Shown piece by piece: positions 33,144 to 58,596 of a stretch of DNA of 64,000 nucleotides. The notes below the pieces were generated by a model that saw nothing but the letters and a program-made list of their open reading frames with translations, did not search any database and was not told the DNA's origin. Origin of the DNA: Bacteroidota bacterium (GTDB taxonomy: Bacteria; Bacteroidota; Bacteroidia; 2-12-FULL-35-15); the NCBI GenBank assembly GCA_947469885.1, contig CANIQT010000013.1:13604-77603 (forward strand), read 5' to 3'. Every line of letters begins with the position of its first letter. The stretch's first letter is position 1. Position numbers and translations under genes: made by a program.

Positions 33144-33168
33144 ATACTAATCAATAATCAATAAAAAA

Positions 33169-34488: not shown

Positions 34489-34531
34489 TCCGATTTCAGA
34501 TTTCAAATTTCAGATTTGAATATTAAAAAAA

Positions 34532-36708: not shown

Positions 36709-36835
36709 TACCCAAATAAAAAAAGCAATGTAGGCATTGCCAAGCCCCCCGCCCTGTTGACCATAGCCTCTGACTAAATTCGATTTAACAAGACTTCCAG
36801 TCTTTTTAGCCTTTGTTGGTGTTTTTCACCAACAA

Positions 36836-37053
36836 ACGTGTGAAGAAAAAAATCGGGATATTTAATTTCGTACGTTTGCAGGTGAAAAACACCTGCAAAG
36901 GCATCGTTTTCGTTAATAATTAAGAACACCAACAACGGCTAAAAACGTGTGAAGAAAAAAATCGGGATATTTAATTTCGTACGTTTGCAGGTGAAAAACA
37001 CCTGCAAAGGCATCGTTTTCGTTAATATTTAAGAACACCAACAATGGCTAAAA
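36836..37053. repeat. two tandem copies of a 109-bp unit (98 percent identical), each containing a 10-bp-stem hairpin TTTGCAGGTG-aaaaa-CACCTGCAAA; flanked upstream by an inverted partial copy (ttttagcctttgttggtgtt, 36816-36835)
   Basis: Direct comparison of 36836-36944 with 36945-37053 shows 2 mismatches. The inverted repeat between 36816-36835 and the unit ends aacaccaacaa(c/t)ggctaaaa is visible in sequence. Confidence 0.85.
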
Positions 37054-37405
37054 GGCTTTCAGTATTTTTATTTATATGGTTATCTACACCTTTCTTCAAA
37101 TTCATAAAACAAAGATAAGTATAATTGCTACAGAGCAAAAGTTAAAGGCACAAAAATAAATTAGGGCTTTAATAATTTATACTTCTGTTTGGCATACCTT
37201 CTGATGTAGGCTCAACTATATTTTCAAAATCCTTGTATCTTTTTTAACTTTTTGCGTTATTACTATAAAAACAAAAAATATTTACGGAAAAATGTAACCT
37301 TTTATTTTATCTTTCGTAAAACTAGATATAACCACAAAACAATAAGCGCATGAAACACCCCTACCAACAGTAAACATCAAAAAATCAGTGCGCTTAAAAT
37401 TTTTT

Positions 37406-37446
37406 AACCATTAACCATTATCACTTAACCATTATCCATTAATCAC
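37406..37446 (+). promoter_or_regulatory. cluster of reiterated AACCATTA(TC) motifs upstream of the sigma-factor gene (candidate operator/promoter element)
   Basis: The sequence aaccattaaccattatcacttaaccattatccattaatcac carries three or four copies of CCATTA within 40 bp, ending 16 bp before the TTG-initiated ORF. Confidence 0.25.
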
Positions 37447-43600: not shown

Positions 43601-44443
43601 GAATTAAGAAACATGGTACAAGCAGTTCAGGTTTTCCAAGCGTATCCTACTACTTATAATACCTTTGATAATATTGACTTTGGTACGGTAAAAGGAATGT
43701 CGTTGACCTACGAACTAAGAAGAATGGCAACAGGAGTTGCTCTTACTGCTGGTTACACACTTCAGTTTGCAGATGGTACAGGGTCTTCTACCTCTGACGG
43801 AGCAAATGTGGTGGCTGCGGGAGAGCCTAATTTAAGAAACCCACACGCTTTGGATTTTGACCAACGTCATACTATTACCATAAATGTGGATTACCGTTTT
43901 GGAGGAAGCAAAGATTACAAAGGACCAACCTGGACTCGCAAAAAAGGAGACAGCGAAAAAATTATTAAGATATTTGAAAATGTTGGAGCCAATTTAACTG
44001 TTAGAGCAGGTTCGGGTACTCCATATAGTAAACAGGCAAACATTACTCAAGATGGAGCATTTGGTATTGCTGACCGTAGAATATTAAAAGGTAAAATTAA
44101 TGGTTCGAACTTACCTTGGAATTTTAAAATTGACTTAAAAATTGACAAAGACATAGAAGTGACTTGGGGTGGTAAAAAAGAAGGACAAGAGAAAAAGCAC
44201 GGAAATTTGAATGTTTATTTACAAGTATTAAATTTGTTGAACACAAAAAACATCAATGGAATTTATAAAGCAACTGGTAACCCGGATGATGATGGTTATT
44301 TGGCTTCTCCTTCCGGACAGGCATCGTTGGCAGGCAGAAATGATGCTACCGCATTCACCGATTTATATGATATCAAAATTAACAATCCTGGAAATTACAG
44401 TCGCCCGAGGGTGATTCGTTTAGGTATTGTTCTTGAATTTTAA
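40700..44443 (+). CDS. TonB-dependent receptor-like outer-membrane protein (CarboxypepD_reg-like domain + plug + large beta-barrel)
   Basis: Signal peptide, then a CarbopepD_reg-like segment IKVKLTDKNSHETIPFANVIVEMGG...KYDVKATYVGYQTVAISNITV, and a plug-like NMRGARDNGTAYYVDGQKV. It is 1247 aa with a C-terminal ...RLGIVLEF ending in Phe, as in TonB-dependent barrels. Confidence 0.65.
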   Translation: MLRKLLSTLSIVVATSGWMMAQNESAIKVKLTDKNSHETIPFANVIVEMGGIQAGIGTTNIDGEAMIKPLNPGKYDVKATYVGYQTVAISNITVSVGKTVYLNMEMTAGQELKVVEITEWKEPLIDPDTKSGGTVTREEYENMASKNINSVAATTAGVYQKDEGGSLNMRGARDNGTAYYVDGQKVIGSAGVPQGGVEQITTIVGGTPAEYGDETGGIVAITTRGPASKYTGSVELITSGVGEKKGLDAYGYNFIGFSVNGPILTKKDSATSSKKSVLGFSISGSAITEKEPNPSAGGFYKVNSDKLSEIEQTPLRSNGQGGLIPNAEFVTKDDMTRVKAKTNVGSNTLLLNGKVIYQPTTNMGITLGGSVEYNKRHDFVYEYALFNPSNNPQTTASTWRAYAKLTQKFNSATSKEEEKSGSIIKNAYFTMQASYAKTHSKTWDDDHKDNIFDYGYIGKFVQEKTVNYDYKPEQAIYLRHPDGTIYLDTVTGAIMNGWRDSILYFTPSNVNPNGVAYTNEYYANQYAQGLYPENGVDVQGGLGLMNGDRPSNIYSLWYNTGRQYNGYSWSDETQFRVFANFSADIKKHAISLGFEYEQRSQRAYSLAPIGLWTLMRQLANYHLKNLDSVATAYDTQFGTFYYYDRKNDGTQNQFDRSFRQSLGMDVNGTDWIDIDSYDPSKFSIDMFSADDLLNNGSSYVSYYGYDHTGQKIKGKPSLDDFFTAKDDKGNYTRQIGAYQPIYIAGYIQDKFDFRDLKFNVGLRVDRFDANQKVLKDKYLLYEARTAGEVSSIGGSNINHPSNIGDDYVVYVDNKDNPSRIVGYRDGDTWYNAQGTTITDPSSLTGANTVDGAINPYLVDPSSAKKKIISTKVFQDYKPQLNFMPRIAFSFPISDVASFFAHYDVLTQRPPGGNRLDPIAYLNMENLSGGFINNPNLKPEKTTDYELGFQEVLNEKKNSVLKITAFYRELRNMVQAVQVFQAYPTTYNTFDNIDFGTVKGMSLTYELRRMATGVALTAGYTLQFADGTGSSTSDGANVVAAGEPNLRNPHALDFDQRHTITINVDYRFGGSKDYKGPTWTRKKGDSEKIIKIFENVGANLTVRAGSGTPYSKQANITQDGAFGIADRRILKGKINGSNLPWNFKIDLKIDKDIEVTWGGKKEGQEKKHGNLNVYLQVLNLLNTKNINGIYKATGNPDDDGYLASPSGQASLAGRNDATAFTDLYDIKINNPGNYSRPRVIRLGIVLEF

Positions 44444-44515
44444 TTCATAAAAAAACGACAAATAGAATAGTAAAAAAATTAAAAATATCCCCTATAACGA
44501 ATAAATAAATAAATT

Positions 44516-47500
44516 ATGAAAAAGAAAAATTTTAACGTAATCGTTTTGTCAATTTTCTTGGCATTTGCATTCGGTGCATTTGCAAAAGAAAACATTGGAG
44601 GTGGAAGTCATCCAACAAACCCTCCGGGTAACAATTCAGCCAAGTCGGTAAATGCTCAATGCGTAAATGCTACAGCACAAATAGATTTGGACATCAACAA
44701 TGTAAGAGCCAAAATTATGAATGGAGGCGACATGTGGTGGGATATTTTTGCTTCCACGAACGCTAGGTATCAGGTACCTAAACCTGCAAGTAGTTCTACC
44801 ATCGGACCAAGCTCACAGTTCGCAAGTTCTGTGTGGGTTGGAGGTTACGATGCTGGTGGTCAGCTAAAAGTAGCTGCTCAAACGTATCGCCAGAGCGGAA
44901 ACGACTATTGGCCCGGACCATTGAAAGATGATGCAACTACCGATGCAGGCAGATGTTTGCTTTGGGATAGATTCTACAAATTGAACCGTAAAGATGTTCA
45001 GGCTTATTACGAATGGGTAATGGGTGGTTCTATTGGAGTAAATCCTATCATTTCGGGAGCATCATTGCCTGATGCTTGGGCTACTATCACAGATTGGCCT
45101 GCTGTAAGTCCTGATAACCATCCTTTAGCTCCTTTTTATGATATTGATGCCAATAATGAATACGACCCAAGTGTGGGTGATGTTCCTGATTTTGATGTTA
45201 CTGGTACAAGAGGTTGCAATGCTCAGCTATATGGCGACCAGTGTATTTTTTGGGTGTTTAATGATAAAGGAAATATACACACCGAAACAGGAGGTGAAGC
45301 CATAGGATTGGAAGTACAGGCACAGGCATTTGCTTTTCAGACCAACGATGAAATTAACAATGCTACCTTTTACAAATATAAATTAATTAACAAAGGTTCG
45401 TTTGTATTAGATAGTACGTTCTTCGGATTGTGGGATGATGCCGATTTGGGAGATTATTCTGACGATTATGTAGGTTGTGATGTTGGTCTTGGGTTGGGTA
45501 TTCTTTATAATGGAGATGCGGTGGACGGTACCGGTGGTGCTACGCACTATGGAGCTAACCCTCCTGCAGTGGGTGTTGACTTTTTTGAAGGACCAAAGGC
45601 TGATACGAATGGTTTAGATGATCTTTCTAGTTCAAGACCGGCTTCATTCATTAATTATGGAAACACTGTGGTTGATGATGAGCGTTTAGGGATGTGTCGT
45701 TTCATGTATTTTAATAATGACTTTACTCCCGTTAACGGAAACCCGGAAGCAACAGATGATTATTACCAATACTTATCAGGAACATGGAAAAATGCAACTC
45801 CAATAACTTATGGTGGAGATGGTACAACAGGAAGTGTGCCATGTGCGTATATGTTCCCTGGAAGTTCGGATGCTCCTGCCTTTTTTGGAACAAATGGAGT
45901 AATTCAGCCAGCATGGAGCGAAACAGCAGTGCCTGCTGATAGACGTTTCCTTGAAAGTGCTGGTCCTTTTAAATTATATCCTGGTGCTGTCAACTACATT
46001 ACCGTTGGTGTTCCTTGGGCAAGAGCCACTCAAGGAGGTCCTTTGGCTTCTGTAGCACTTTTGAAAGGTGCTGACTCTAAAGTTCAGCAATTGTTCAACA
46101 ACTGTTTCTCTACGTTAAATGGTCCTGATGCTCCTAACTTAACGATTCAGGAATTGGATAAAGAATTAATATTAACCTGGTCCAATCCTTCTAATTCAAA
46201 CAACGCAAACGAAAGATATACTGAAGATTACGATAAATCCTCTGGGGCAGATTCGTTGTACCGCTTTCAAGGGTACATGGTGTATCAGTTAAAAGATGCT
46301 TCGGTGAGTGCCACCGATTTATACAATGTGGACAAGGCACGTTTAATTTTCCAGTGCGATAAAAAAGACAATGATAAACCAAATGGTGCAGCTCAGATAG
46401 TGAACTATACCAATGATATTACTATTTCAGCATTGGTTCCACAAGAAATGGTGAACGGTGTTGATAAGGGTATCATACATTCTTTGTCTGTAAAATCAGA
46501 TAAATTTGCAACTGGTAGCGATGTGTTGATTAATCACCACACCTATTATTTTGCAATTATTGCTTATGGTTACACACCAACTCAAGTGCCTACTAATCTT
46601 AACCAATTGCAAGACTACAAACCATTTATTGCAGGAAGAAGATTTATGGATGCTACTTTTTATCATACTGCTATTCCTCATATCCCTTCGCCAGAAGCAA
46701 ATGGAACACAGGCACAATCATCGTATGGTACAGGTCCAAAATTAACAAGAATAGAAGGACAGGGTAATGGTGCAATGGTGTTGGATTTAACTTCAGGTAC
46801 TGTGGACGAAATAATGAATTCAGGTTCTGGATGGCGCTCTATTCATCCTCAATATGAAAACTCTCACGGTCCAGTAAACATGAAAGTGATTGACCCATTG
46901 AATGTACCAGCCAACAGAAATTTCAGATTCATTATGAACGGAAGGGTTGTTACTAATTTATCTTCCATACCTACAACTGCTACATGGGATTTGATTGATA
47001 TGGATAATCACGATACTGTTCATTCCGAAACAAGTATTGCTTTGCCAAATGAGCAAATTATCAATGGGCAATCATCTGGTTCTGCTGCGGTTTCTATTCC
47101 TCGATGGGGGCTATCTGTTAATTCAGTTTATACGTATGATCCAGGATTAGCAGGTTGTGTTGATAATGGCTATTTGGAAGCTACAATGACTTTTGCTGAC
47201 CCTGTTAAAGCATGGTTGACGGGAGTGCCCGATGCGGAAGGATTGGATTATCATAACTGGATTCGTTCAGGAACTTTTACTTCTAAAAATCCGTTAGGAT
47301 TTGACGATTATGCAGGAAAAGACGATCAACAGTTTTACGAAAAAATGATTGGCGGCACATGGTCTCCTTATCGTATGGCTTCTATGGTGGTTCCAACCAC
47401 TGCAACAAACCCAGTAATTATGACGGGTAGTCCGGCATGGAACAGTTCTTCTGCCATGGGTCAGGATTTATTATCCAACCTTGCAAGTGTGGATGTAATT

Positions 47501-48592
47501 ATTACCAGCGACCGCTCTAAATGGACTAGATGTCCGGTTATTGAGTTGGAAGAAGCTACTAACTTGGCAATAGGCAATACTCCAAAAATGAAAATGCGTA
47601 GTTCTGCTTCAGTTGATAAAAATGGTACTGCCAACTTCCCTTCGACAGACAATAGCGATTACTCTACAGGTATGAGTTGGTTCCCTGGGTATGCAATTAA
47701 TCTTGAATCAGGAGAGCGTTTGAACATGGCTTTTGGAGAAGATTCTTGGTTGGTAGCTGACCATGGTGCAGATATGATGTGGAATCCAACTACAACGGAC
47801 CTTTCGGCAACAGACAATACTCCAGTTTTTGGAGGGAAACACTATATATATGTGTTCGGGCATAATGGTAACAAATTGTTCCCATCAAACGACCCGCATT
47901 TCCCAAATCAAATAAAAAACATGCCTCGTTACGATGGTGGTGCTTTCACTCATAATATGTTGTCGGTGGCTACCATGTCAGATGCATCTAACCTTTATGC
48001 ACGTGCGGTTTATGGCGATGCTATGTGGGTAAATATTCCTTTACTTGTACCTGGGCACAGTTTATTTGAAACTGATGTAAAAGTACGTTTGAGAGTTGCT
48101 AAATCGTACCAGTTTGGTTATGCAGGTTTAATTGCCCCTTTAACTGATACCTCGTTAACTGCTACCAATCACAATTTACCGATGTACGATTTTAATACAG
48201 CAGATATTGGAACCAAAACAAGTGATGCAGATGCTGCGGCTAATGCGCTTGACTTGATTAATGTAGTTCCAAATCCGTATTATGCGTACTCCGGATACGA
48301 ACTTTCGACAGCTGAAGTGAAAGTAAAAATAACCAATCTACCAGAAAAATGTACTGTAACTATTTATACTTTAAATGGCACATTGGTGAGAGCATTTAAA
48401 GTGGATCAGCCTGGTTATGCAAGAGACAAAATGGGGGTAGCGGTTACCTCTATTGACTGGGATTTGAAAAACCAAGTTAGAATTCCAATTTCGAGCGGAC
48501 TTTATATTATACATATAGATGTTCCTGATGTTGGAGAGAAAAACATTAAATGGTTTGGTGTGATGCGTCCGATAGATTTAGAAGCTTATTAA
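44516..48592 (+). CDS. large secreted protein (1358 aa) with T9SS type-A CTD; positional candidate for PorU-like T9SS sortase
   Basis: Signal peptide MKKKNFNVIVLSIFLAFAFGAFA. The C-terminal VVPNPYYAYSGYELSTAEVKVKITNLPEKCTVTIYTLNGTLVRAF...GLYIIHIDV is a CTD. It lies immediately upstream of a PorV-like gene, the porU-porV order. The C25 catalytic dyad is not verified. Confidence 0.5.
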   Translation: MKKKNFNVIVLSIFLAFAFGAFAKENIGGGSHPTNPPGNNSAKSVNAQCVNATAQIDLDINNVRAKIMNGGDMWWDIFASTNARYQVPKPASSSTIGPSSQFASSVWVGGYDAGGQLKVAAQTYRQSGNDYWPGPLKDDATTDAGRCLLWDRFYKLNRKDVQAYYEWVMGGSIGVNPIISGASLPDAWATITDWPAVSPDNHPLAPFYDIDANNEYDPSVGDVPDFDVTGTRGCNAQLYGDQCIFWVFNDKGNIHTETGGEAIGLEVQAQAFAFQTNDEINNATFYKYKLINKGSFVLDSTFFGLWDDADLGDYSDDYVGCDVGLGLGILYNGDAVDGTGGATHYGANPPAVGVDFFEGPKADTNGLDDLSSSRPASFINYGNTVVDDERLGMCRFMYFNNDFTPVNGNPEATDDYYQYLSGTWKNATPITYGGDGTTGSVPCAYMFPGSSDAPAFFGTNGVIQPAWSETAVPADRRFLESAGPFKLYPGAVNYITVGVPWARATQGGPLASVALLKGADSKVQQLFNNCFSTLNGPDAPNLTIQELDKELILTWSNPSNSNNANERYTEDYDKSSGADSLYRFQGYMVYQLKDASVSATDLYNVDKARLIFQCDKKDNDKPNGAAQIVNYTNDITISALVPQEMVNGVDKGIIHSLSVKSDKFATGSDVLINHHTYYFAIIAYGYTPTQVPTNLNQLQDYKPFIAGRRFMDATFYHTAIPHIPSPEANGTQAQSSYGTGPKLTRIEGQGNGAMVLDLTSGTVDEIMNSGSGWRSIHPQYENSHGPVNMKVIDPLNVPANRNFRFIMNGRVVTNLSSIPTTATWDLIDMDNHDTVHSETSIALPNEQIINGQSSGSAAVSIPRWGLSVNSVYTYDPGLAGCVDNGYLEATMTFADPVKAWLTGVPDAEGLDYHNWIRSGTFTSKNPLGFDDYAGKDDQQFYEKMIGGTWSPYRMASMVVPTTATNPVIMTGSPAWNSSSAMGQDLLSNLASVDVIITSDRSKWTRCPVIELEEATNLAIGNTPKMKMRSSASVDKNGTANFPSTDNSDYSTGMSWFPGYAINLESGERLNMAFGEDSWLVADHGADMMWNPTTTDLSATDNTPVFGGKHYIYVFGHNGNKLFPSNDPHFPNQIKNMPRYDGGAFTHNMLSVATMSDASNLYARAVYGDAMWVNIPLLVPGHSLFETDVKVRLRVAKSYQFGYAGLIAPLTDTSLTATNHNLPMYDFNTADIGTKTSDADAAANALDLINVVPNPYYAYSGYELSTAEVKVKITNLPEKCTVTIYTLNGTLVRAFKVDQPGYARDKMGVAVTSIDWDLKNQVRIPISSGLYIIHIDVPDVGEKNIKWFGVMRPIDLEAY

Positions 48593-48653
48593 TCCATTAG
48601 ATTCGCACAATAAGAATAAAAAAAATAGTATTGAACAACGAAAAAAAAAAGAT

Positions 48654-49763
48654 ATGAAAAAACGTTATAAATTAGTAGCAACTTTGGTTATTGTTGTCGT
48701 GTCATCGGTTATTCCTGGCAATATGCTAAAGGCTGGAAATCCTGACCGTGTAGGACAAGCCGGAGCAACAGAATTGTTAATAAACCCATGGGCACGTAGC
48801 TCTGGGTGGGCAGGAAGTAATGTTGCCGGAGTTAGAGGATTGGAATCCATATTTTCGAATGTGGCAGGTACAGCATTCACCAAAAAAACAGAGTTGATTT
48901 TTGCACGTACTCAATGGCTAAAAGGAACTGATATTAATATTAATGGTTTTGGTTTAACCCAACATGTGGGCGAAACAGGAGCTATTGGATTGTCGGTGAT
49001 GTCGATGAGATTTGGTGATATTCCTATTACCACCACAGATGTGCCTGAAGGCGGATTGGGAACTTTCTCTCCTCAGTTTATGAACATTACTGTTTCATAT
49101 GCAAAAGGGTTTTCGGATAATATTTATGGAGGATTAGCCGTAAAAGTAATTACCGAAAAAATTGCTAACGTGGGTGCTAGAGGTGTAGCTTTGGATGCAG
49201 GTATTCAATATGTAACCGGAAAGCGCGAACAATTGAAGTTTGGAATTGCGCTTCAAAACTGGGGACCTAAAATGAAATACACTGGAGATGGTTTAGGTTT
49301 CAAAACTCAAGTTCCGGCTAGTACCACTACTGCTACCATGACAGTTGAACAACGCTCAGAGCAATTTGAATTACCTTCGTTATTAAGCATTGGTGCAGGG
49401 TATGACTTTTATGTAAAAAAAGACAGTGCTTCGATGAAAATGCATCGCATTACTGCAATGGGAACTTTTACTTCGTGCGCATTCGACAAAAACCAATATA
49501 AATTAGGTTTGGAATACGCTTGGAAAAGTATGCTTATGCTTCGTGTAGGTTATACTATCGAAAAAGGAATTACTAAGGATTTGGATTATTCTTCGGAATC
49601 TTCTAACACAAGTTTGACCACTGCATTAAAAGGACCAAGCGCAGGTTTTACTTTTGAGATTCCGTTTGGTAAAAATAAATCAACTTTTGGTATTGATTAT
49701 TCTTACAGAGCAACCAATACTTTTGGAGGCACCCATTCGATTGGTGCACGTGTGAATTTATAG
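48654..49763 (+). CDS. PorV/PorQ-family (FadL-like) outer-membrane protein, candidate T9SS shuttle PorV
   Basis: The 369-aa product has a signal peptide, then GQAGATELLINPWARSSGWAGSNVAGVRGLESIFSNVAG, which matches the PorV-type (E/F)LLIxPDARxxGMGxxGVA N-terminal pattern. It is barrel-like and ends IGARVNL. Confidence 0.45.
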   Translation: MKKRYKLVATLVIVVVSSVIPGNMLKAGNPDRVGQAGATELLINPWARSSGWAGSNVAGVRGLESIFSNVAGTAFTKKTELIFARTQWLKGTDININGFGLTQHVGETGAIGLSVMSMRFGDIPITTTDVPEGGLGTFSPQFMNITVSYAKGFSDNIYGGLAVKVITEKIANVGARGVALDAGIQYVTGKREQLKFGIALQNWGPKMKYTGDGLGFKTQVPASTTTATMTVEQRSEQFELPSLLSIGAGYDFYVKKDSASMKMHRITAMGTFTSCAFDKNQYKLGLEYAWKSMLMLRVGYTIEKGITKDLDYSSESSNTSLTTALKGPSAGFTFEIPFGKNKSTFGIDYSYRATNTFGGTHSIGARVNL

Positions 49764-49791
49764 TATTTTTTTATAATTTTTGTATTCATAA

Positions 49792-49830
49792 AAGAGAGTC
49801 CCGCTATTGCGGGATTCTCTTTCTGTTTTA
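49792..49830 (+). terminator. rho-independent terminator
   Basis: agagagtcccgc-tatt-gcgggattctct followed by ttctgtttt. Confidence 0.6.
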
Positions 49831-49857
49831 TCACTGACTAACTAAACAATAATAATT

Positions 49858-50331
49858 ATGTCAAACATTTCTTATTTTACAGAAGAGGGATTAAAAAAAA
49901 TTCAAGAAGAATTGCACCAACTAATGGCAGTGGAGCGCCCTTCTATTTCAAAACAAATTGCTGAAGCTCGCGACAAAGGCGACTTATCAGAAAATGCGGA
50001 ATACGATGCCGCCAAGGAAGCGCAAGGCTTATTGGAAATGCGAATTTCGAAACTGGAAGCAGTGGTTAAAAATGCGCGCGTTATTGACGAATCGAATATG
50101 GATGTATCGAAAGTATTGGTGCTTTCGAAAGTAAAAATTAAAAACAAAGCTACGGGAGCAATGATGGCTTACACACTTGTGGCTGAAAACGAAGCTAATT
50201 TTAAGGAAGGAAAAATTTCTGTTGACTCGCCTATCGGTAAAGGTTTGCTAGGAAAGAAAAAAGGAGATACTGCCGAAATAAAAGTGCCTTCGGGAGTGAT
50301 GCAGTTTGAAATTGTGGAAATTTCGCGTTAA
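49858..50331 (+). CDS. greA: transcription elongation factor GreA
   Basis: The 157-aa product shows a coiled-coil N-domain with GDLSENAEYDAAKEAQ and an FKBP-like C-domain. Confidence 0.9.
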   Translation: MSNISYFTEEGLKKIQEELHQLMAVERPSISKQIAEARDKGDLSENAEYDAAKEAQGLLEMRISKLEAVVKNARVIDESNMDVSKVLVLSKVKIKNKATGAMMAYTLVAENEANFKEGKISVDSPIGKGLLGKKKGDTAEIKVPSGVMQFEIVEISR

Positions 50332-50749
50332 TTATAATTCTAAATCCTTAATCAAATTGGCTAGTATTTTTTCAAGAATAATTGCAGGCGAAATACCTTG
50401 TTACAAAATTGCGGAGAACGACAAATTCTTTGCTTTTTTGGATGTGTTCCCATTGGTTCATGGTCATGTGTTGGTGGTTCCAAAAACGGAGACCGATTAT
50501 ATTTTTGATATTGCTGATGCCGATTTGGCTGAAATGATGGTGTTCGCTAAAAAGGTTGCTAAAGCCATAAAATTGGCTGTTCCGTGCAAACGCATTGGTG
50601 TTGCAGTTATCGGTTTGGAAGTACCTCATGCTCATATTCACCTGGTGCCTATGAATACCGCCAACGATATTAATTTTACCCAAGCTAAGCTAACACCTAC
50701 TGCTGAAGAGCTTAGTGTCATAGCGGTAAAAATACGTTCAGTGTTTTAA
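50306..50749 (+). CDS. HIT (histidine triad) family hydrolase
   Basis: HIT motif PHAHIHLVP. The track start overlaps greA by 26 nt. The true start may be the TTG near 50358 (LASIFSRIIAGEIP). Confidence 0.75.
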   Translation: MKLWKFRVNYNSKSLIKLASIFSRIIAGEIPCYKIAENDKFFAFLDVFPLVHGHVLVVPKTETDYIFDIADADLAEMMVFAKKVAKAIKLAVPCKRIGVAVIGLEVPHAHIHLVPMNTANDINFTQAKLTPTAEELSVIAVKIRSVF

Positions 50750-51170
50750 TTGGTTTTAAAAATCACCACTACCCTTTTACAAGCAATTCTGTTATTAACG
50801 AAAAAGGTCAAAAAAAGAGTTTGGGACATATCCCTGATTGGGGAATGCGTCCACACAAATGTTTGGGTGTATTCCCAGTCAGGGATAGGTTCCACACAAG
50901 CATTCGGTAGGATTCCTCAGCCGGTGAATATATAGGGTATAATTTATGGTGCTTGTTGTGGGATTTAATTGATTCTATACTGATTAACAATAAGTTCTTA
51001 CAAGAAAAAGGTTTTTAGCAAAATGTTTTTGCTCACTTTTGCCAAAAAAAAGGTTATTTTATTTTACTAAAATCATCTTTTATATCAAATTATATTATTA
51101 ATATTGTAGCATGATTACAATGCTCTTAAATATAATGCTCCTTGCATTAATTATTGTAATTATTAAATTG

Positions 51171-51198
51171 CACCGCACCGCACCGCACCGCACCGCAC
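51171..51198. repeat. pentanucleotide microsatellite (CACCG)5 + cac
   Basis: caccgcaccgcaccgcaccgcaccgcac is read directly. It lies about 205 bp upstream of the likely start (51403) of the 1425-aa CTD protein gene. Confidence 0.9.
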
Positions 51199-51357
51199 AC
51201 AAGCGCAGCAGCGGCAGATAATAAATTATATTTATTTTTTTCAAAGTCCATTCGCATTTTGCGTTTGGGCTTTTTTTATTCCCCTTGAGAGAAGCAAGGG
51301 GTGTGTTTAAAAAAAACAGAACGCAGATGACGCGGATTAGGCGGATGAACACTGATT

Positions 51358-54300
51358 ATGAATTTCAGATTACAAATTATAAACCCTAAAACAAAAAACG
51401 AAATGAAAAAACAATTACTTAAATTAGTGATGCTCGCCTGTATATTTATAGGAGTGGGAGCAAAAACGATGAATGCGCAAAGTGGTGATAGTTGCACCAC
51501 GGCAAAAGATTTTTTACCAGATACCAGTATGGTACCTCAGGTAGAAATAATGAGTAATGGAACAGTGTGGTACAAGTTTACTGCAATTGATTCTAATTTA
51601 ACAATAAAATTGGTTGAACTTTTTTCTTCTCCGGGTAACAAAGTGCTTAGTGTAAAAGTGAGGATAGCTAATTGCAGTAATCCAAGTATTATAGCCAGCG
51701 ATACCATTACTGATTTGTATGATTCAGCACTTGTAATTACAACCACATTGCTTGATTCGGGTAGTGTTTATTATTTGGAAATAACAAAAAACAACAGCAC
51801 TGAAGAAGTTAAAATGTTGATAGTGGTTGATAATAATCCGAAAATAAATTGGGGCTGCACAGTACCACCTCAATGTGAGTATGTTTTTAATGGAGATTTT
51901 GAAGATTATCTTTCAGTGCCAACCGGAGGGCCAAACCAATATAATCCCGGACAAATTTTCAGAACGTGTAATTGGTCAACTGCAAATATTGGAACCCCTG
52001 ATTATTTTATGACAATAGCTCCTGCAAATTCAAATTTTGGAGTACCAAATAACGTGGCAGGAGCTGGTGCTTTTTCAATTAATTCAGCAGGCACAACCCC
52101 AAGTGGGGGAGCGTATGGAGGAATAAATGCCTGGTGGGGAGGGCAGCCAGCAGGTTTGTCTGAATGTATTCAAGGAAATTTGGTGTGTCCACTCACAGCA
52201 GGAGTAAATTATATTGTTTCATTTTATGTACATCAGGCAAGTTTTTCTCATTTTACAGTCCCAATGCTGGGAGCCGCTATAACAAACGGCAGTATAGCTA
52301 CAGCAACTGTATTTGCCCCTGTTCCCCCAGCAGGCTCGGTAATAGCAGGAGGGTTGACAAGTACAAATAACTGGCAACTTATTACAGGAGTCTATTGTGC
52401 AACAGGAGGAGAAGACCATATTACTATTGGAGATTTTTGGCCCCTGCAACCACCAATTCCAAACGGCTTTGGGCAGGCACAGGCAGCTTATTATTACATA
52501 GATGGTATTTCTGTTTCGCCCATGCCATTAGCTGTTACAACTTCAACTATTTGTTCGGGCGAAACACCCGTACTGAACAATAACTATTGCGGTGCCCAAA
52601 TGGACTGGACTTCAACCTACCCATGGTCGTGTGCAGCTTGTATAGACCCTAATCCAAGTTTACCTTTTCTATCGAGTAGCGAATCGTTTACGGCTACTCT
52701 TACATTGTGCGATGGATGTGTTCAAACTTCAACAGCTGTGGTAACTGTTGCTCAGCCTCCTGTTATTATAATTACAGGAAGTATAACATCGTGTACCGGT
52801 GCGGGTACGGTTTATACTGCACTTCAATTAGGAGTTACCCAATCGCCAGTGACTTATAGCTGGACAGCAAGTAACGGAGCATCTCAATCGGGCACAAGCA
52901 ATACTTTTACTCCAGGGTTTTCATCAGCGGGAGGTACTATCTATTGTACCATTACAAACGCTGCTACAGGCTGTAAAGGCACTGCTTCGTTATATGTTGG
53001 CAGCTGCTGCGAGCCACCTACCCCCAACATTAATTTTACCAATACAGCTGTAAATGTGTTGCCGGGTAGCCTGGCAGCAAACAGTATGGGAACCTGGAAT
53101 AGTTCCACCTATGAGGTGAAAGGCAAAACATTTTCGATTAACGGAACATTTACCGTTAATATGGATTTGACCTTGATGGGATGTACCGTATTGATGGGTT
53201 ATGGTACAACCATTAATATCAGTCCGGGAAAAAAATTAATTATTACCGATTTGGTGGACCCAACTTTACCTTGGCTTATATCTCATTTGTATGCCTGTAA
53301 AGAAATGTGGAGTGGTATCAATGTTATCTACTCTAACAGTTCATTACTCATAGACCATGGAACCACTATTGAAGATGCTGAAACAGCTGTATTTGCAACC
53401 AATGGAGGGGATGTAACTATTGGAGGCTACTATAATCAAACAGGGCAATTAAAAGTAATTTTTAATAAAAACCTAAAAAATGTAGTTATAAATAATTCCG
53501 GCACACATGTATATACTACCAATACCATTACGGCAACCGATTTTGAATGTATTGTAGGGCAAATACCACAAGGCGGAAGTAATGTGAATGGAGGTAATTT
53601 TTTAATGTTTCCTCATGCTAACATACGTCCTGATGTAGGGGTGGATTTGAATATGGTAAATAATATAACCATTGGAAGTGCTGCCAGTGCCAATTTATTA
53701 AACAAATTTGAAAACATGGATTACGGCATACGGTCGGATAAAAGTAACCTGATTGTTTACAACAACTTGTTTCAGGACATTACCATGCCTCAGAATATAT
53801 TTATTGGTAGTTGTTTGCCGGGTACTGCTATATGTGCCAAAGGAAACATTTCCAGCAATTATCCTCCTTATATGATTGTGGGCAGTTCATCTGCCGGAAA
53901 TTACATCAACACGTTTAACAATTGCGGAGTGGGCATAGATGCAGGAAAAACAATGAACCAAACCATTTGGGAAAACCATTTTAATAATATTAAAAAATGG
54001 GCAATACGTGAAAATACCAACCTGACGTGCAGTATTGTTATTGCACAAAATCATATTGTTAATGCACAGATTGGTATTGACTGTTTCAACAGCTTGTTTT
54101 CGTATGTAGATATTTACAATAATGATATTACAAACAGTGGGGGTTTGGCAAATGTAATTGGCATAAATGTGAACGAGCCCACACCTTCTCCGACTGGATA
54201 TTACAGAATACATTACAACAACATTAACTATGTTCGCTCTGGAATATTGGCTAACGGACTAACAGGCTCCAACATTGATAGGAACAATATTCGAATTACT

Positions 54301-55635
54301 CCTACTACTATTAATAATCCTCTGCCTTGCTATGGTGTGAAGGTGGACAACAGCCGTAAGTGCAATGTGGTGGCAAACTGGGTGCTGGGCACCACCATCG
54401 ACCGTTGGGTGTATGGTATTGACCTGAATTCAGTATGCAGTAGTAATCAAGTAACCTGCAACGAAAGCCATACCGTGGGGCGTGGGTTGTTTTTTGGAGG
54501 AAACCAACTGCCCGGTACGTTAATAGCAAAAAACATGATGGATAATAACCTGGAAGGGTTTGTGATAAATGGAAATAATGGTCAAGTTGGTCCTCAGAGC
54601 AGTTTTTTCGGTGTTTCGTGCGATAATACTTGGTCGCCTAATATGACCTTTAACACAGCAAATTACGGTAACGCTCCAGGGAATCTCTCTATCTTATATG
54701 TTAGAACTCCATGCGGTACTCCTTACTGCCCTAGTCCTTGGAATATGTATCCAGGTTCTTTACTTTATAATATACCTCAATTTGTTGCTGCAAGCAATTT
54801 AAGTTACACCTGTCCTGTGGTATTGCATCCCTTTGCAAATGCAGCAACTCATGCCATGTTATTAAAAATAGCAGGTGATTCAATTCCTGTTGAAGAATAC
54901 GATTCTGCAACCATATTTATGATGCACCAAAACCTGTATAGATACTTAGCCTCCGATTCTACTTTTTTAACCAACGACAGTTTATTACAATCGTTTGTTC
55001 AGGAAATGAATGAAGGTAATCTTGGAAAGTTAGATTCTATAGAGCGTATGTTTGCTAAACCAGCCACAATGGATACCACCCAATTGCTTAGTTTGCTGGC
55101 ACTGGTCAATTCTATTACTGCCAGCAGCAGTGTGGAAGCAAACAGTGCATGGCTATACAAACAAATGCTAACCAATTTGCTTCAACGCAAAGAATGGGAC
55201 AGCACTCAAATATACAGCTTGAGAGACTTGGCATGGAAATGTGCTCATACCGATGGGGCAGCAGTGCTACAGGCAAGAGCCATATTGTCTCAGTTAGACA
55301 CTGTTGAATATTATAATATTTGCGAACTTGGAGATGAGTTGACTCCAAAAATCCATTGGACAGTTAATCAACCTACCAAAAGGAATTCATTCAAATTGTT
55401 TCCAAATCCAAACAATGGACAAATGAATTTGATTTATTCATTAAGTAAATCAGATAAGGGTGAATTAAATTTATATGATTTAAGAGGGTTACTAATTAGA
55501 AAATACTCATTGCAATCTGGCGAAAATAATCAATTGTTCATTAATGAATCAGAATTAGGTAACGGAGTATATTTTTATAAAGTGATGGTGAATGATGAAT
55601 TAAAATCAAGTGACAAGATTGTAATTATTAAATAA
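51358..55635 (+). CDS. very large secreted protein: CBM4_9-like N-terminal jelly-roll domain, parallel beta-helix repeats, T9SS type-A CTD
   Basis: The real start is probably 51403 (MKKQLLKLVMLACIFIGVGA signal). PbH1-like repeats include NNITIGSAASANLL..., NHIVNAQIGIDCFNS... and NNIRITPTTINN.... The C-terminal KLFPNPNNGQMNLIYSLSK...NGVYFYKVMVNDELKSSDKIVIIK is a CTD. Confidence 0.65.
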   Translation: MNFRLQIINPKTKNEMKKQLLKLVMLACIFIGVGAKTMNAQSGDSCTTAKDFLPDTSMVPQVEIMSNGTVWYKFTAIDSNLTIKLVELFSSPGNKVLSVKVRIANCSNPSIIASDTITDLYDSALVITTTLLDSGSVYYLEITKNNSTEEVKMLIVVDNNPKINWGCTVPPQCEYVFNGDFEDYLSVPTGGPNQYNPGQIFRTCNWSTANIGTPDYFMTIAPANSNFGVPNNVAGAGAFSINSAGTTPSGGAYGGINAWWGGQPAGLSECIQGNLVCPLTAGVNYIVSFYVHQASFSHFTVPMLGAAITNGSIATATVFAPVPPAGSVIAGGLTSTNNWQLITGVYCATGGEDHITIGDFWPLQPPIPNGFGQAQAAYYYIDGISVSPMPLAVTTSTICSGETPVLNNNYCGAQMDWTSTYPWSCAACIDPNPSLPFLSSSESFTATLTLCDGCVQTSTAVVTVAQPPVIIITGSITSCTGAGTVYTALQLGVTQSPVTYSWTASNGASQSGTSNTFTPGFSSAGGTIYCTITNAATGCKGTASLYVGSCCEPPTPNINFTNTAVNVLPGSLAANSMGTWNSSTYEVKGKTFSINGTFTVNMDLTLMGCTVLMGYGTTINISPGKKLIITDLVDPTLPWLISHLYACKEMWSGINVIYSNSSLLIDHGTTIEDAETAVFATNGGDVTIGGYYNQTGQLKVIFNKNLKNVVINNSGTHVYTTNTITATDFECIVGQIPQGGSNVNGGNFLMFPHANIRPDVGVDLNMVNNITIGSAASANLLNKFENMDYGIRSDKSNLIVYNNLFQDITMPQNIFIGSCLPGTAICAKGNISSNYPPYMIVGSSSAGNYINTFNNCGVGIDAGKTMNQTIWENHFNNIKKWAIRENTNLTCSIVIAQNHIVNAQIGIDCFNSLFSYVDIYNNDITNSGGLANVIGINVNEPTPSPTGYYRIHYNNINYVRSGILANGLTGSNIDRNNIRITPTTINNPLPCYGVKVDNSRKCNVVANWVLGTTIDRWVYGIDLNSVCSSNQVTCNESHTVGRGLFFGGNQLPGTLIAKNMMDNNLEGFVINGNNGQVGPQSSFFGVSCDNTWSPNMTFNTANYGNAPGNLSILYVRTPCGTPYCPSPWNMYPGSLLYNIPQFVAASNLSYTCPVVLHPFANAATHAMLLKIAGDSIPVEEYDSATIFMMHQNLYRYLASDSTFLTNDSLLQSFVQEMNEGNLGKLDSIERMFAKPATMDTTQLLSLLALVNSITASSSVEANSAWLYKQMLTNLLQRKEWDSTQIYSLRDLAWKCAHTDGAAVLQARAILSQLDTVEYYNICELGDELTPKIHWTVNQPTKRNSFKLFPNPNNGQMNLIYSLSKSDKGELNLYDLRGLLIRKYSLQSGENNQLFINESELGNGVYFYKVMVNDELKSSDKIVIIK

Positions 55636-55644
55636 ATAACTTTA

Positions 55645-55680
55645 AACAATAACTTCTATCAAATGATAGAAGTTATTGTT
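55645..55680 (+). terminator. perfect 16-bp-stem hairpin (aacaataacttctatc / gatagaagttattgtt), terminator/attenuator 12 nt before the next ATG
   Basis: The inverted repeat is read directly and is followed by tatcttt. Confidence 0.5.
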
Positions 55681-55692
55681 TATCTTTGAAAG

Positions 55693-56673
55693 ATGAAAAA
55701 AATATTAAATCTTATATTTTGTGTTTTGTGTTTCGTGAATAATCTCAAGTCGCAAAATCTTGTACCTAACGAATCATTTGAAGTTTTGGACAGTTGCCCA
55801 AACAATCAGGGAAGAATATATCTTGCTCTGCCGTGGTTTCAACCTTGCATATATTCAGGTAATACCCATAACTCTTCAAGCTCCGATATTTACAATCCAT
55901 GTGCTTTATGGGCTCCAGCTGGAGTTCCGGTCAATATGGTTGGTTCCCAATTTGCCAGAATTGGTGTTGGATATGCAGGTATTCACCCAGATGTTGACAC
56001 TTTTAATTACCGCGAATACATTGAAGTCCCATTATTATCGCCATTAATTGCCAATAAACTGTATTGTGTAAAGTTTTATGTTTCCTTGGCTGAAACGTCA
56101 CATCATGCCATAAGTAATATGGGGGCATATTTTTCAAATGATAGCTTATTGGATACTTCGTATTATCATGCCATAGATTATGTTTTTCCGCAAATAGAAA
56201 ATCCTGGAAATGTTTTTTTAAATGATACTGCAAATTGGGTGTTGGTTTGGGGTAATTTTATTGCTACTGGTGGAGAGCGGTTTATGACAATAGGAAATTT
56301 TCATAATCATGCAAATACAAATGTTCAAAATTTGAACGGAGGTTCTCTAGGCAACTGGTCGTATTATTACATAGATGATGTAAGTGTTATAGATTGCGAT
56401 AGTATAAGTGGGGTAAAAGAAATGAATGATGAAATGGAAGTGAGCATTGCGCCCAACCCGGCAAAGGATGAATTACGAATTAAGAATTATGAATTAGGAA
56501 TTAAAACAATAAAAATATATAACCTGCTAAGTGAATGTGTCTATAACACAACAATAAAACAATTAAACACTATAACCATTGATGTTGCCTATTTACCCAA
56601 AGGCATCTATTTTATTGAACTGCAAAGTGAGAAAGGAACTGCGAGAAAGAAGTTTATAAAGGACGGCAAATAG
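55693..56673 (+). CDS. secreted CBM4_9-like domain protein with T9SS type-A CTD (paralog A)
   Basis: Signal peptide MKKILNLIFCVLCFVNNLKSQ, an NLVPNESFE jelly-roll start, and the C-terminal SIAPNPAKDELRIKN...KGIYFIELQ CTD. Confidence 0.65.
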   Translation: MKKILNLIFCVLCFVNNLKSQNLVPNESFEVLDSCPNNQGRIYLALPWFQPCIYSGNTHNSSSSDIYNPCALWAPAGVPVNMVGSQFARIGVGYAGIHPDVDTFNYREYIEVPLLSPLIANKLYCVKFYVSLAETSHHAISNMGAYFSNDSLLDTSYYHAIDYVFPQIENPGNVFLNDTANWVLVWGNFIATGGERFMTIGNFHNHANTNVQNLNGGSLGNWSYYYIDDVSVIDCDSISGVKEMNDEMEVSIAPNPAKDELRIKNYELGIKTIKIYNLLSECVYNTTIKQLNTITIDVAYLPKGIYFIELQSEKGTARKKFIKDGK

Positions 56674-56698
56674 CCAGTGGTTATTTGAGCGAGTATGT

Positions 56699-57388
56699 GT
56701 GAATGCAGATTCCACTTTTTTAACCAACGACAGTTTATTACAATCGTTTGTTCAGGAAATGAATGAAGGTAATTTAGGAAAATTAGATTCCATTGAGCGG
56801 ATGTTTGCAAAACCAGCTACAATGGATACCACCCAATTACTTAGCTTACTGGCATTGGTCAATTCCATTACTGCAAGCAGCGCGGTGGAGGCAAATAGTG
56901 CCTGGCTGTACAAACAAATGCTTGGAAATTTATTAGCTGGAAAAGATTGGGACAGTACTCAAATATCCAGTTTGAAAGATTTGGCTTGGAAATGCGCCCA
57001 CACCGATGGGGCGGCAGTGCTGCAAGCAAGAGCTATTTTATCGCAATTAGATACTGTTGAATATTATAATATTTGCGAACTTGGAGATGAGTTGACTCCA
57101 AAAAGCCATTGGACAGTTAATCAACCTATGAAAGGGAATTCCTTCAAATTATTTCCTAATCCCAATAATGGTAGTATGAATTTGATATATACTTTGAATA
57201 AAAATGAGAAAGGGGAATTATATCTTTATGATTTGGCGGGAATACTGATTAAAAAATATACTTTACAAGTAGGTGAAAACAATCAACTTTTCATCAATGA
57301 GTCAGCATTGAGTAATGGTGTGTATTTTTATAAAGTAATGATAAACGATGAATTAAAAACAAGTGCAAAAATTGTAATTATTAAATAA
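56699..57388 (+). pseudogene. truncated duplicate of the C-terminal 229 aa (linker + CTD) of the 1425-aa protein; no signal peptide
   Basis: 56706-57388 aligns with 54958-55635 at roughly 85-90 percent identity, with long perfectly identical patches. The ATG at 56699 is created at the duplication junction. Confidence 0.55.
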
Positions 57389-57397
57389 ATAACTTTA

Positions 57398-57434
57398 AAC
57401 ATAAACTTCTATCAAACTGATAGAAGTTTATGTT
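57398..57434 (+). terminator. second copy of the 16-bp-stem hairpin, with two compensatory base-pair swaps
   Basis: aacataaacttctatc / gatagaagtttatgtt. Stem positions 5 and 6 changed in both arms so that pairing is preserved. Confidence 0.5.
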
Positions 57435-57446
57435 TATCTTTGGAAG

Positions 57447-58415
57447 ATGAATAAAGCATTCTTTCTTTTCGTAATATTGAACTTGACTCAGAATCTTTCA
57501 ATGAATGGACAAAACCTTGTACCTAATTCCTCTTTTGAAGTAATTGATTCTTGCCCTACTATAGATGGAAAGCTATATTTTGCGCAACCATGGTTTCAGC
57601 CCTGCATTTATTATGGGAACACGAAAAACTCTTCTAGTTCCGACATCTTCAGTTATTGTGCGTCATACATGGGTGTTCCTACTAATGGAGAAGGTTCTCA
57701 ATTTGCAAGGACAGGTAACGGATATGCAGGTTTTAGTCCTTACGCTGGTATTAATAATGGTCGCGAATATAACGAAGTTCAACTATTATCACCGTTAATA
57801 GCCAATAAACTCTATTGTGTAAAATTTTATGTTTCATTAGCTGAAACCTCACGATACGCAATTAGCAAATTAGGTGTGTATTTTTCCGTAGATAGTTTAT
57901 TAGATACTTCCTATTATCATGCAATAGATTATGTTTTTCCGCAAGTAGAAAACCCTAGTAATATTTTTTTAAATGATACATCTAATTGGATGTTGGTATG
58001 GGGAAATTTTGTTGCAACTGGTGGAGAGCGGTTTATGACAATTGGTAATTTTCATAATCCCGCAAATACAAATGTTCAAAACGTAAACGGAGGTTCTTTT
58101 TATTGGACATATTATTATATAGATGATGTAAGTGTAGTAGATTGTGATAGTATAAGTGGGGTAGGGGAAATTAATGGAGAGGTGGATGTGAGCATTGCGC
58201 CTAATCCTGCAACGGATGAATTACGAATTAAGAATTATGAATTAGGAATTAAAACAATAAAAATATATAACCTGCTAAGTGAATGTGTCTATAACACAAC
58301 AATAAAACAATTAAACACTATAACCATTGATATTGCCTATTTACCCAAAGGCATCTATTTTATTGAAGTACAAAGTGAGAAAGGAATAAAGAGGAGAAAG
58401 TTTGTGAAAGAATAA
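57447..58415 (+). CDS. secreted CBM4_9-like domain protein with T9SS type-A CTD (paralog B)
   Basis: The 322-aa product is collinear with paralog A at about 75 percent aa identity. Its CTD coding part is nearly nucleotide-identical to that of paralog A. Confidence 0.65.
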   Translation: MNKAFFLFVILNLTQNLSMNGQNLVPNSSFEVIDSCPTIDGKLYFAQPWFQPCIYYGNTKNSSSSDIFSYCASYMGVPTNGEGSQFARTGNGYAGFSPYAGINNGREYNEVQLLSPLIANKLYCVKFYVSLAETSRYAISKLGVYFSVDSLLDTSYYHAIDYVFPQVENPSNIFLNDTSNWMLVWGNFVATGGERFMTIGNFHNPANTNVQNVNGGSFYWTYYYIDDVSVVDCDSISGVGEINGEVDVSIAPNPATDELRIKNYELGIKTIKIYNLLSECVYNTTIKQLNTITIDIAYLPKGIYFIEVQSEKGIKRRKFVKE

Positions 58416-58596
58416 AAACACGATTAACCCACCAACATCCTCCTCGTCATAAATTTCTTATTTCTTCGATTTGCGATATAAAAATTTTTACTACTTTGGT
58501 GCAACCATTTTAATGTTCTAAGCATCCTTATAGATGGGTGGTGGAATTGGAACAATTTATTGTTAACCATTTTAGTTAATTTAAATCTACTTTTAG

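Follow-up and report, generated by a model that had tools for sequence, protein, structure and literature searches.

A pentanucleotide repeat in a short leader frame ahead of two terminator-like hairpins: a candidate phase-variable attenuator of a type IX secretion cargo gene in a freshwater Bacteroidota bacterium

The spacer behind a HIT-family gene in an uncultured freshwater Bacteroidota bacterium (assembly GCA_947469885.1, contig CANIQT010000013.1, positions 13,604 to 77,603; this whole stretch of 64,000 nucleotides is referred to as the window) carries a perfect tandem repeat with a five-nucleotide unit. The repeat tract lies wholly inside a 36-codon ATG reading frame, which is followed by two hairpins resembling intrinsic terminators and then by a large gene for a cargo protein of the type IX secretion system (T9SS). 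On the grounds of this anatomy we regard a phase-variable transcription attenuator as a plausible candidate for the function of the locus. The features concerned are listed here with their positions in the window.

49858-50331: gene for GreA, the upstream neighbour
50357-50749: HIT-family gene (PF01230), with a TTG start at 50357 and its stop at 50749
about 50956-58432, + strand: strain-variable island of about 7.5 kb, with the leader, the tract, the terminators and four genes with T9SS sorting domains
51099-51106, + strand: TAATATTG, the nearest approach to a -7 box upstream of the small frame, with 5 of 6 specified positions
51111-51221, + strand: 36-codon ATG frame, candidate leader peptide MITMLLNIMLLALIIVIIKLHRTAPHRTAHKRSSGR, with a tandem stop TAA TAA at 51219-51224
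51170-51198, + strand: perfect pentanucleotide tract (GCACC)5+GCAC
51199-51218, + strand: tail ACAAGCGCAGCAGCGGCAG, rich in G+C and in part resembling the repeat, that connects the tract to the in-frame stop
51243-51277, + strand: T1, hairpin like an intrinsic terminator, with a stem of 8+4 bp at 51243-51273, a dG of -15.4 kcal/mol and seven T at 51271-51277
51281-51308, + strand: T2, terminator-like hairpin CCCCTTG-AGAGAAG-CAAGGGG, with its stem-loop at 51281-51301, a dG of -12.1 kcal/mol and TGTGTTT thereafter
51403-55635, + strand: gene for a T9SS cargo protein of 1410 aa, the candidate gated gene, with a signal-peptide-like N-terminus MKKQLL... and a sorting domain at residues 1332-1408

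The tract was found by direct reading, by Tandem Repeats Finder (TRF) and by our own scan, and can be written in the alternative phase as (CACCG)5+CAC at 51171-51198. TRF assigns it a period of 5 with 5.8 copies, 100% matches and zero indels. A first-pass annotation of the window had described a perfect pentanucleotide repeat about 200 bp upstream of a large gene, in a spacer of 610 bp, and this geometry holds: 204 nt separate the end of the tract from the ATG at 51403, and the HIT stop lies 608 nt from an alternative ATG at 51358 and 653 nt from that at 51403. Scanned for units of 1-9 nt with a minimum of 3 copies and a total length of 15 bp or more, the window contains this as its sole perfect repeat. 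The longest perfect run of period 5 measures 29 nt in the window, whereas 200 shuffles that preserve dinucleotide composition average 13.5 and never exceed 19. A 15-mer of the repeat has no other match with up to 3 mismatches in the window, and no further copies of the tract were found in the window or in the 100+ loci that we fetched. Three independent metagenome assemblies contain the tract with identical flanks, which rules out an artefact of assembly. Chance does not account for the tract itself. The tail downstream of it, which TRF reports as a second row of period 15 with 80% matches, may consist of decayed repeat units. PhasomeIt uses a cut-off of 5 units for pentanucleotide tracts (PMC6321876), and the tract stands exactly at this length threshold for contingency loci; the authors of PhasomeIt caution that mutation rates at the cut-off are possibly below 1e-5 (PMC6321876).

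Read in the small frame, the tract encodes HRTAPHRTA(H). The frame contains further in-frame ATGs at 51120 and 51135, and its peptide begins with 19 hydrophobic residues that are followed by a basic tail. A unit of 5 nt shifts the reading frame, so we built alleles of 1-10 units in silico and located the leader stop in each of them, with the following result.

2, 5 or 8 units: + strand, leader stop at 51219-51221, ahead of T1
3, 6 or 9 units: + strand, leader stop TGA at 51286-51288, beyond T1 and within the 5' arm of T2
1, 4, 7 or 10 units: + strand, leader stop TAA at 51308-51310, beyond both hairpins

Whether the stop precedes T1, falls within T2 or lies past T2 is set solely by the repeat number modulo 3. 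A single unit gained or lost from five therefore turns a short leader into one that would be translated through the terminators. Tract, frame, hairpins and the three stop positions are all read directly from the DNA.

Both hairpins lie about 100-160 nt upstream of the T9SS cargo gene, and we interpret them as putative terminators between the leader and the structural gene. Hairpins with a T-run that reach -9 kcal/mol are scarce, with about 7 sites on the + strand of the 64 kb, T1 among them. Three other strong + strand hairpins stand 24-41 nt past the stops of annotated genes. T1 is 495 nt away from the end of the preceding annotated gene, yet begins only 21 nt past the stop of the small frame. 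The region folds better than its shuffles (z = -3.8). The only pairing of the tract that RNAfold predicts is a long-range one, CCGC with GCGG at 51331-51345, which encloses both hairpins, and visual inspection revealed no antiterminator pairing of the tract with the arms of T1 or T2. Rfam 15 has no match at its gathering score in 50700-51450 (the best, at E = 0.34, is sub-threshold); over the whole window its gathering threshold yields only tRNA elsewhere, and the spacer yields sub-threshold noise at E up to 10.

This arrangement could likewise belong to an independent small gene, which would encode a 36-aa membrane peptide and end at its own terminator T1, so that the tract would phase-vary the C-terminus of the peptide rather than the large gene. 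A transmembrane helix with a basic tail is familiar from type I toxins and other small membrane proteins, and the hydrophobic N-terminal 19 residues, the tandem stop, the distance from stop to T1, which is normal for this genome, and the favourable folding of the region all agree with it. The peptide has neither a family match nor a homologue, however, and hydrophobic frames are expected by chance in A+T-rich DNA. An independent gene would moreover leave the large gene without a recognisable promoter and the open alternative frames across the terminators unexplained. We therefore consider it quite unlikely.

The first-pass annotation had placed the tract in the promoter or leader region of the large gene and suggested slipped-strand mispairing as a switch of its expression. 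The general idea of a surface gene switched by slippage is plausible and fits a published mechanism, discussed below; the promoter setting finds no support. The -7 box of Bacteroidota has the consensus TAnnTTTG (PMC7366714). No exact copy of it is present on either strand of the 653-nt spacer or beside the tract. The two terminator-like hairpins lie between tract and gene, and the tract itself is enclosed by the ATG frame, which the first-pass annotation had overlooked. In about 10 other genes of the window an exact TAnnTTTG precedes the ATG by 12-62 nt. The last 140 nt ahead of 51403 lack even a 5-of-6 match to the -7 box, and the interval from T2 to the ATG is equally devoid of such near-matches. 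A scan for sigma-70-type promoters gave two weak sites on the minus strand, fewer than in shuffles, and none beside the tract on the + strand.

In the classical promoter repeats of Neisseria and Haemophilus the length of the tract alters the spacing of promoter elements. A switch of this kind, in which transcription would depend on how far the tract holds promoter elements or a regulator site apart, would agree with the place of the tract, 204 nt from the ATG and within the sole long spacer ahead of the gene, and the promoter could be of the ECF type (extracytoplasmic function sigma factor) or otherwise unrecognised. It is opposed by the lack of any -7 or -33 box beside the tract on either strand and by the two hairpins, which would cut off a promoter at the tract from the gene. 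We judge a spacing switch to be very improbable indeed; attenuation through translation of the leader is the more likely mechanism of the two.

Invertible promoters (invertons) are the usual phase-variation device of Bacteroidota, and we considered and rejected one for this spacer. The inverted repeats here are only 11 nt (91% complementary) or 19 nt (74%) long and A+T-rich; no promoter box lies between any pair of them, and no recombinase gene is found among the neighbours, which are GreA, HIT and T9SS cargo genes. The locus resembles the invertons of Bacteroides in the on/off control that it would exert on a surface structure of Bacteroidota and in the tendency of metagenome assemblies to break at such sites, but the break positions here coincide with no inverted-repeat arm.

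The closest mechanistic precedent is provided by the pil1 and pil3 pilus operons of Streptococcus gallolyticus, in which a leader frame (38 aa for pil1) with (GCAGA)n is followed by a stem-loop terminator (Danne et al. 2014, PMC3894217). In-frame repeat numbers place the leader stop 39-49 nt before the terminator and result in low expression, whereas leaders with out-of-frame numbers are longer and end shortly ahead of the hairpin, inside it or beyond it; the ribosome then blocks the terminator and the operon is ON (PMC3894217). Mutants of the leader start, with stops in three frames or with the terminator deleted behaved as predicted (PMC3894217). A gap between stop and terminator of at least 28 nt was linked to the low state and one of 4 nt to the high state (PMC3894217). 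Among the papers returned by a full-text search from 2014 onward, only the S. gallolyticus study describes a phase switch composed of repeat, leader peptide and terminator.

We take pil1/pil3 as the best mechanistic model because the same parts occur here in the same order: a pentanucleotide repeat in a short leader frame (36 aa here, 38 aa there), a T-run intrinsic terminator between the leader and the gene for a surface structure, and an in-frame stop before the terminator that out-of-frame repeat numbers shift into or beyond it. Four structural features of the pil1 type are found, and two, the 21-nt gap and the promoter layout, are ambiguous. The differences are considerable. S. gallolyticus belongs to the Firmicutes and has 13-22 units of GCAGA, in contrast to 5 units of GCACC in a member of the Bacteroidota; there are two tandem hairpins here, separated from the stop by 21 nt instead of 39-49 nt; the leader here has a hydrophobic N-terminus outside the repeat; and the target is a T9SS cargo gene and not a sortase pilus operon. 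The two systems share no sequence homology, and the likeness is one of anatomy; no length variants have been seen here. In trp and his leader attenuation a short upstream frame likewise precedes a terminator whose formation is decided by the position of the ribosome. It differs in that no antiterminator pairing was found here and that the proposed signal is a heritable frameshift rather than the amount of charged tRNA available. For B. thetaiotaomicron, short reading frames have been noted within long 5' untranslated regions (PMC7366714).

By analogy with pil1/pil3, the locus would work as follows. Transcription would start upstream of, or near, 51111, and a ribosome would translate the leader from the 51111 frame. 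With 5 (or 2 or 8) units it would halt at 51219-51221, 21 nt before T1, so that T1 and T2 could fold and most transcripts would end ahead of the large gene, which would be OFF or low. One unit more or fewer would shift the frame of the leader. With 6 units the leader would be read through T1 to a stop inside T2, and with 4 units to a stop past both hairpins; the translating ribosome would block formation of the hairpins, transcription would continue into the gene, and the state would be ON. From the arrangement of the parts we infer four things, namely translation of the leader, termination at the hairpins, an upstream origin of transcription and a changing length of the tract. A slippage-prone tract in a leader that is followed by two terminators, acting as a phase-variable attenuator of the T9SS gene in the manner of pil1 and pil3, is the interpretation to which we tentatively give most credence, short of calling it probable.

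The frame pattern as sole evidence is weak. What we regard as more telling is the combination of an ATG frame around the tract with a rare strong terminator at the usual distance from a stop, a second hairpin, a surface-protein gene lacking a recognisable promoter and their joint inheritance in an island. This island is variable between strains. A sister lineage with 90-97% identical flanks (L013, L014, L103 among the fetched loci) is devoid of it, and its HIT spacer runs straight to position 58433, a junction just past the last sorting-domain gene; the island has no obvious mobility genes. Leader, tract and terminators are thereby inherited together with the large gene, being absent where the gene is absent. 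Two further loci from independent assemblies, L007 and L008, are 100% and 99.9% identical to the window over 49645-51035 and diverge at 51036, directly after a small palindromic hairpin at 51017-51035. Beyond this point they carry a minus-strand frame (L007:1392-1582), of which the last 17 codons correspond to a remnant in the window at 50984-51035. The HIT spacer thus exists in at least 3 arrangements. Just past HIT there is also an inverted repeat at 50819-50897, with 24-nt arms that are 83% complementary and a 31-nt loop. It may represent a small hairpin-forming insertion, because 50849-50922 is absent from the sister lineage.

For comparison between assemblies, contigs were retrieved by exact look-ups of the HIT, GreA, large, 326-aa and 103-aa proteins. 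Eight independent contigs enter the spacer from the left; over 1.4-12 kb they match the window with 100% or 99.9% identity and therefore represent one clone. In five of these eight assemblies the contig ends no more than about 30 nt from the tract (ends in L002, L003, L004, L006, L009 and L018), at the positions given here.

51181, the 12th base of the tract: Logan ERR12084910, ERR3761199 and ERR12084916
51153: Logan ERR12084928
51164: ENA ERZ28612979, of which the right-hand contig starts at 51229, leaving a gap at 51165-51228

Five ends within 30 nt cannot be random, and the breaks point to an oddity at the site of the tract. Gain or loss of a unit was rejected as an insufficient cause of the break at 51181, since in a graph of k=31 it predicts ends at 51193 or 51198; an allele of n=2 would predict an end at 51183, and no allele that we considered predicts 51181. 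Because the Logan samples contain the right end of the island, its mere absence does not explain the breaks. An alternative allele or an insertion that joins at 51182 could be responsible, as could a similar cassette at another site or a sequencing drop-out of a systematic kind.

The first two of these causes amount to a rival explanation of the site, as a structural breakpoint or a cassette in several copies: the breaks would mark another allele that diverges at 51182 or a second leader cassette at another place. It would account for three Logan ends at exactly 51181, one at 51153 and the ENA gap at 51165-51228, of which the borders, if the ENA assembler worked at k=55 (an assumption), are 51110-51283, a unit of the leader plus T1; the spacer is also a known point of rearrangement, as seen in L007 and L008 at 51036. 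MEGAHIT contigs at k141, on the other hand, cross the tract region cleanly, neither the window nor any fetched locus contains a second copy, a 26-mer of left flank and tract has 0 matches in the metagenomes of the Joint Genome Institute (JGI), and the positions of the breaks vary between samples. We hold a breakpoint or cassette to be very unlikely.

Several observations weigh against a phase-variable attenuator. The number of units is n=5 in 3/3 assemblies that cross the tract (ERZ28613009, ERZ27277814 and ERZ27263797, the contig of the last being found in three samples), all of the same clone. The length variation among strains that the first-pass annotation had proposed as a check thus receives no support, in a comparison that has almost no power because the contigs are nearly identical. 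By exact look-up in a collection of 15 billion proteins, the leader peptides predicted for n=1-10 are absent, as are the antisense frames of the spacer. Variant HIT, 326-aa and 103-aa proteins, used as probes for more strains, led only to the same clone or to the sister lineage without the island. The three Logan breaks at 51181 misfit the positions predicted for simple gain or loss of units. Five units are the shortest length that is normally counted as mutable, and the gap of 21 nt is shorter than the 28 nt linked to OFF in S. gallolyticus, lying between the gaps of the low and the high state. The -7 box scan upstream of the leader gave no convincing promoter, only TAATATTG, which is weak since 5-of-6 near-matches are common in this A+T-rich DNA.

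The leader frame was never gene-called in the public collections (exact look-up) and has no family match: Pfam gave nothing significant for any small frame of the spacer in either orientation, the two longer leaders in the alternative frames included, and its best score was YxzE-like at E ~0.1. Hydrophobic small frames readily arise by chance in A+T-rich DNA. In dinucleotide shuffles of the local DNA, the frame pattern has a P of 0.03 in the assignment observed and of 0.09 if every assignment is counted, and an equal pattern occurs at a fraction of 0.14 of all + strand positions of the window, mostly coding ones. Finally, no homologous locus was found in related genomes and hence no evidence of conservation.

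Many of these points are at the same time what a neutral microsatellite would lead us to expect, that is, replication slippage in the non-coding DNA of a recently acquired island, with frame and geometry accidental. The invariance of n=5 in all crossing assemblies, a P for the frame pattern of merely ~0.03-0.09, the lack of conservation or homologues and a small frame with neither family match nor gene call are compatible with it. Perfect repeats of at least 20 bp are also not vanishingly rare at other Bacteroidota loci, where about 18 occur per Mb. A neutral origin has to be reconciled, however, with a tract that is the sole perfect repeat in 64 kb and far beyond shuffles, and with assembly breaks that are non-random at it. 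It also needs the coincidence of an ATG frame, a stop 21 nt before a rare terminator, two further open frames and a promoter-less surface gene. We consider neutrality rather unlikely, though to be taken seriously.

The candidate target of the attenuator is the first of four sorting-domain genes in the island. The alternative upstream ATG at 51358 would extend its product to 1425 aa, whereas it is at 51403 that the signal-peptide-like MKKQLL... starts. The first-pass annotation identified the HIT gene and the C-terminal T9SS sorting domain of the large protein correctly (PF01230 for the former; PF18962 and TIGR04183, a type A domain, for the latter). Its beta-helix label could not be confirmed, as searches of Pfam, NCBIfam and PDB sequences returned nothing beyond the sorting domain. 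A protein homologue search recovered two distant homologues, of 33% and 28% identity. The closer of them (33%, 1485 aa; ENA ERZ1426547 and ERZ1426846) is followed by two sorting-domain genes, and its contigs begin merely 612 and 320 nt upstream of it. In the JGI metagenomes, the N-terminal 400 aa of the large protein retrieved only two relatives, at 25% identity. A scan of GTDB with HIT gave a best identity of 88%, in a freshwater Bacteroidota bin; no relative had a homologous spacer, and in none does the large gene adjoin HIT.

The three sorting-domain genes downstream encode 326, 229 and 304/322 aa. The 229-aa gene (56699-57388) duplicates the C-terminal 227 residues of the large protein (54952-55635) at 88% identity, and the 326- and 322-aa genes (55693-56673 and 57447-58415) are paralogous, with near-identical stretches that include a (GAATTAA)5 coding repeat. 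These copies break assemblies of short k. Directly upstream of GreA and HIT, a three-gene cluster at 40700-49763 encodes a protein of 1247 aa resembling TonB-dependent receptors, one of 1358 aa with a weakly PorZ-like C-terminus and a member of the PorV/PorQ family (NF033709, 147 bits); the neighbourhood is rich in T9SS components.

Other repeats occur in the window and in related genomes. Imperfect arrays of 7-8 nt (TTAACCA x5.6, ATCACCAA x4.5) are found intergenically beside the starts or ends of genes at 669-704, 4054-4097, 33148-33164, 34492-34517 and 37404-37446. In two freshwater relatives (L022:6899-7435, L023:7467-7580), HIT has (CAACTAA/ACATCTA)n upstream and the reverse-complementary (TAGATGT/TAGATAT)n downstream. 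Such arrays next to genes may be a lineage-wide feature. In Bacteroidales from rumen and gut, a minus-strand frame of about 800 aa beside HIT contains perfect repeats of 7 or 8 nt in 3-4 copies (GAGTTGCT x4) near its 3' end (L040:8119-8146, L043:8197-8220, L050:8252-8283, L054:5264-5295); these are possible frameshift-prone tracts in homologous genes. Longer repeats of the window include two 98% identical copies of a 109-bp direct repeat, located at 36834-37053 in a long intergenic region, and a 249-nt unit that is present about 10 times inside the gene for a 1819-aa PKD/CHU_C protein (60637-63177).

Contingency loci driven by short repeats are well known from Neisseria, Haemophilus and Campylobacter, with the CTCTT repeats in the coding regions of opa and the repeats upstream of nadA as examples. 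The locus described here shares with them a perfect repeat beside a surface-protein gene, a unit that is not a multiple of three and a length that reaches the cut-off, and in its sequence it agrees with the way repeat-driven contingency loci are defined bioinformatically, save for demonstrated variability. It differs in the position of the tract, which is outside both the structural gene and any recognisable promoter, and in being a single tract in 64 kb as opposed to one of many. The host, moreover, is an uncultured freshwater bacterium and not a host-adapted pathogen.

If the tract is neutral, it is an ordinary microsatellite in a variable island and of little interest. That a switch of the pil1 type exists outside the streptococci, in a free-living freshwater member of the Bacteroidota, where it gates a strain-specific island of type IX-secreted surface proteins, is in our view possible, if somewhat doubtful. 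If true, it would be a second case of its kind, convergent and in an unrelated phylum, controlling type IX secretion cargo in an environmental bacterium, and repeat-driven translational attenuation would be a device that has recurred by independent evolution. Surface phase variation would also have a second route in a phylum known for its invertible promoters. A bolder version, with which the break points of the assemblies are compatible, would see the unit of leader, repeat and terminator as a portable cassette at several loci. If the attenuator model holds, metagenomes could be searched for its signature, a repeat with a unit that is not a multiple of three in a short frame, followed by a terminator and a surface-protein gene. 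For the biology of free-living freshwater Bacteroidota, such a switch would suggest that their surfaces are subject to stochastic switching, for example against phages or grazers.

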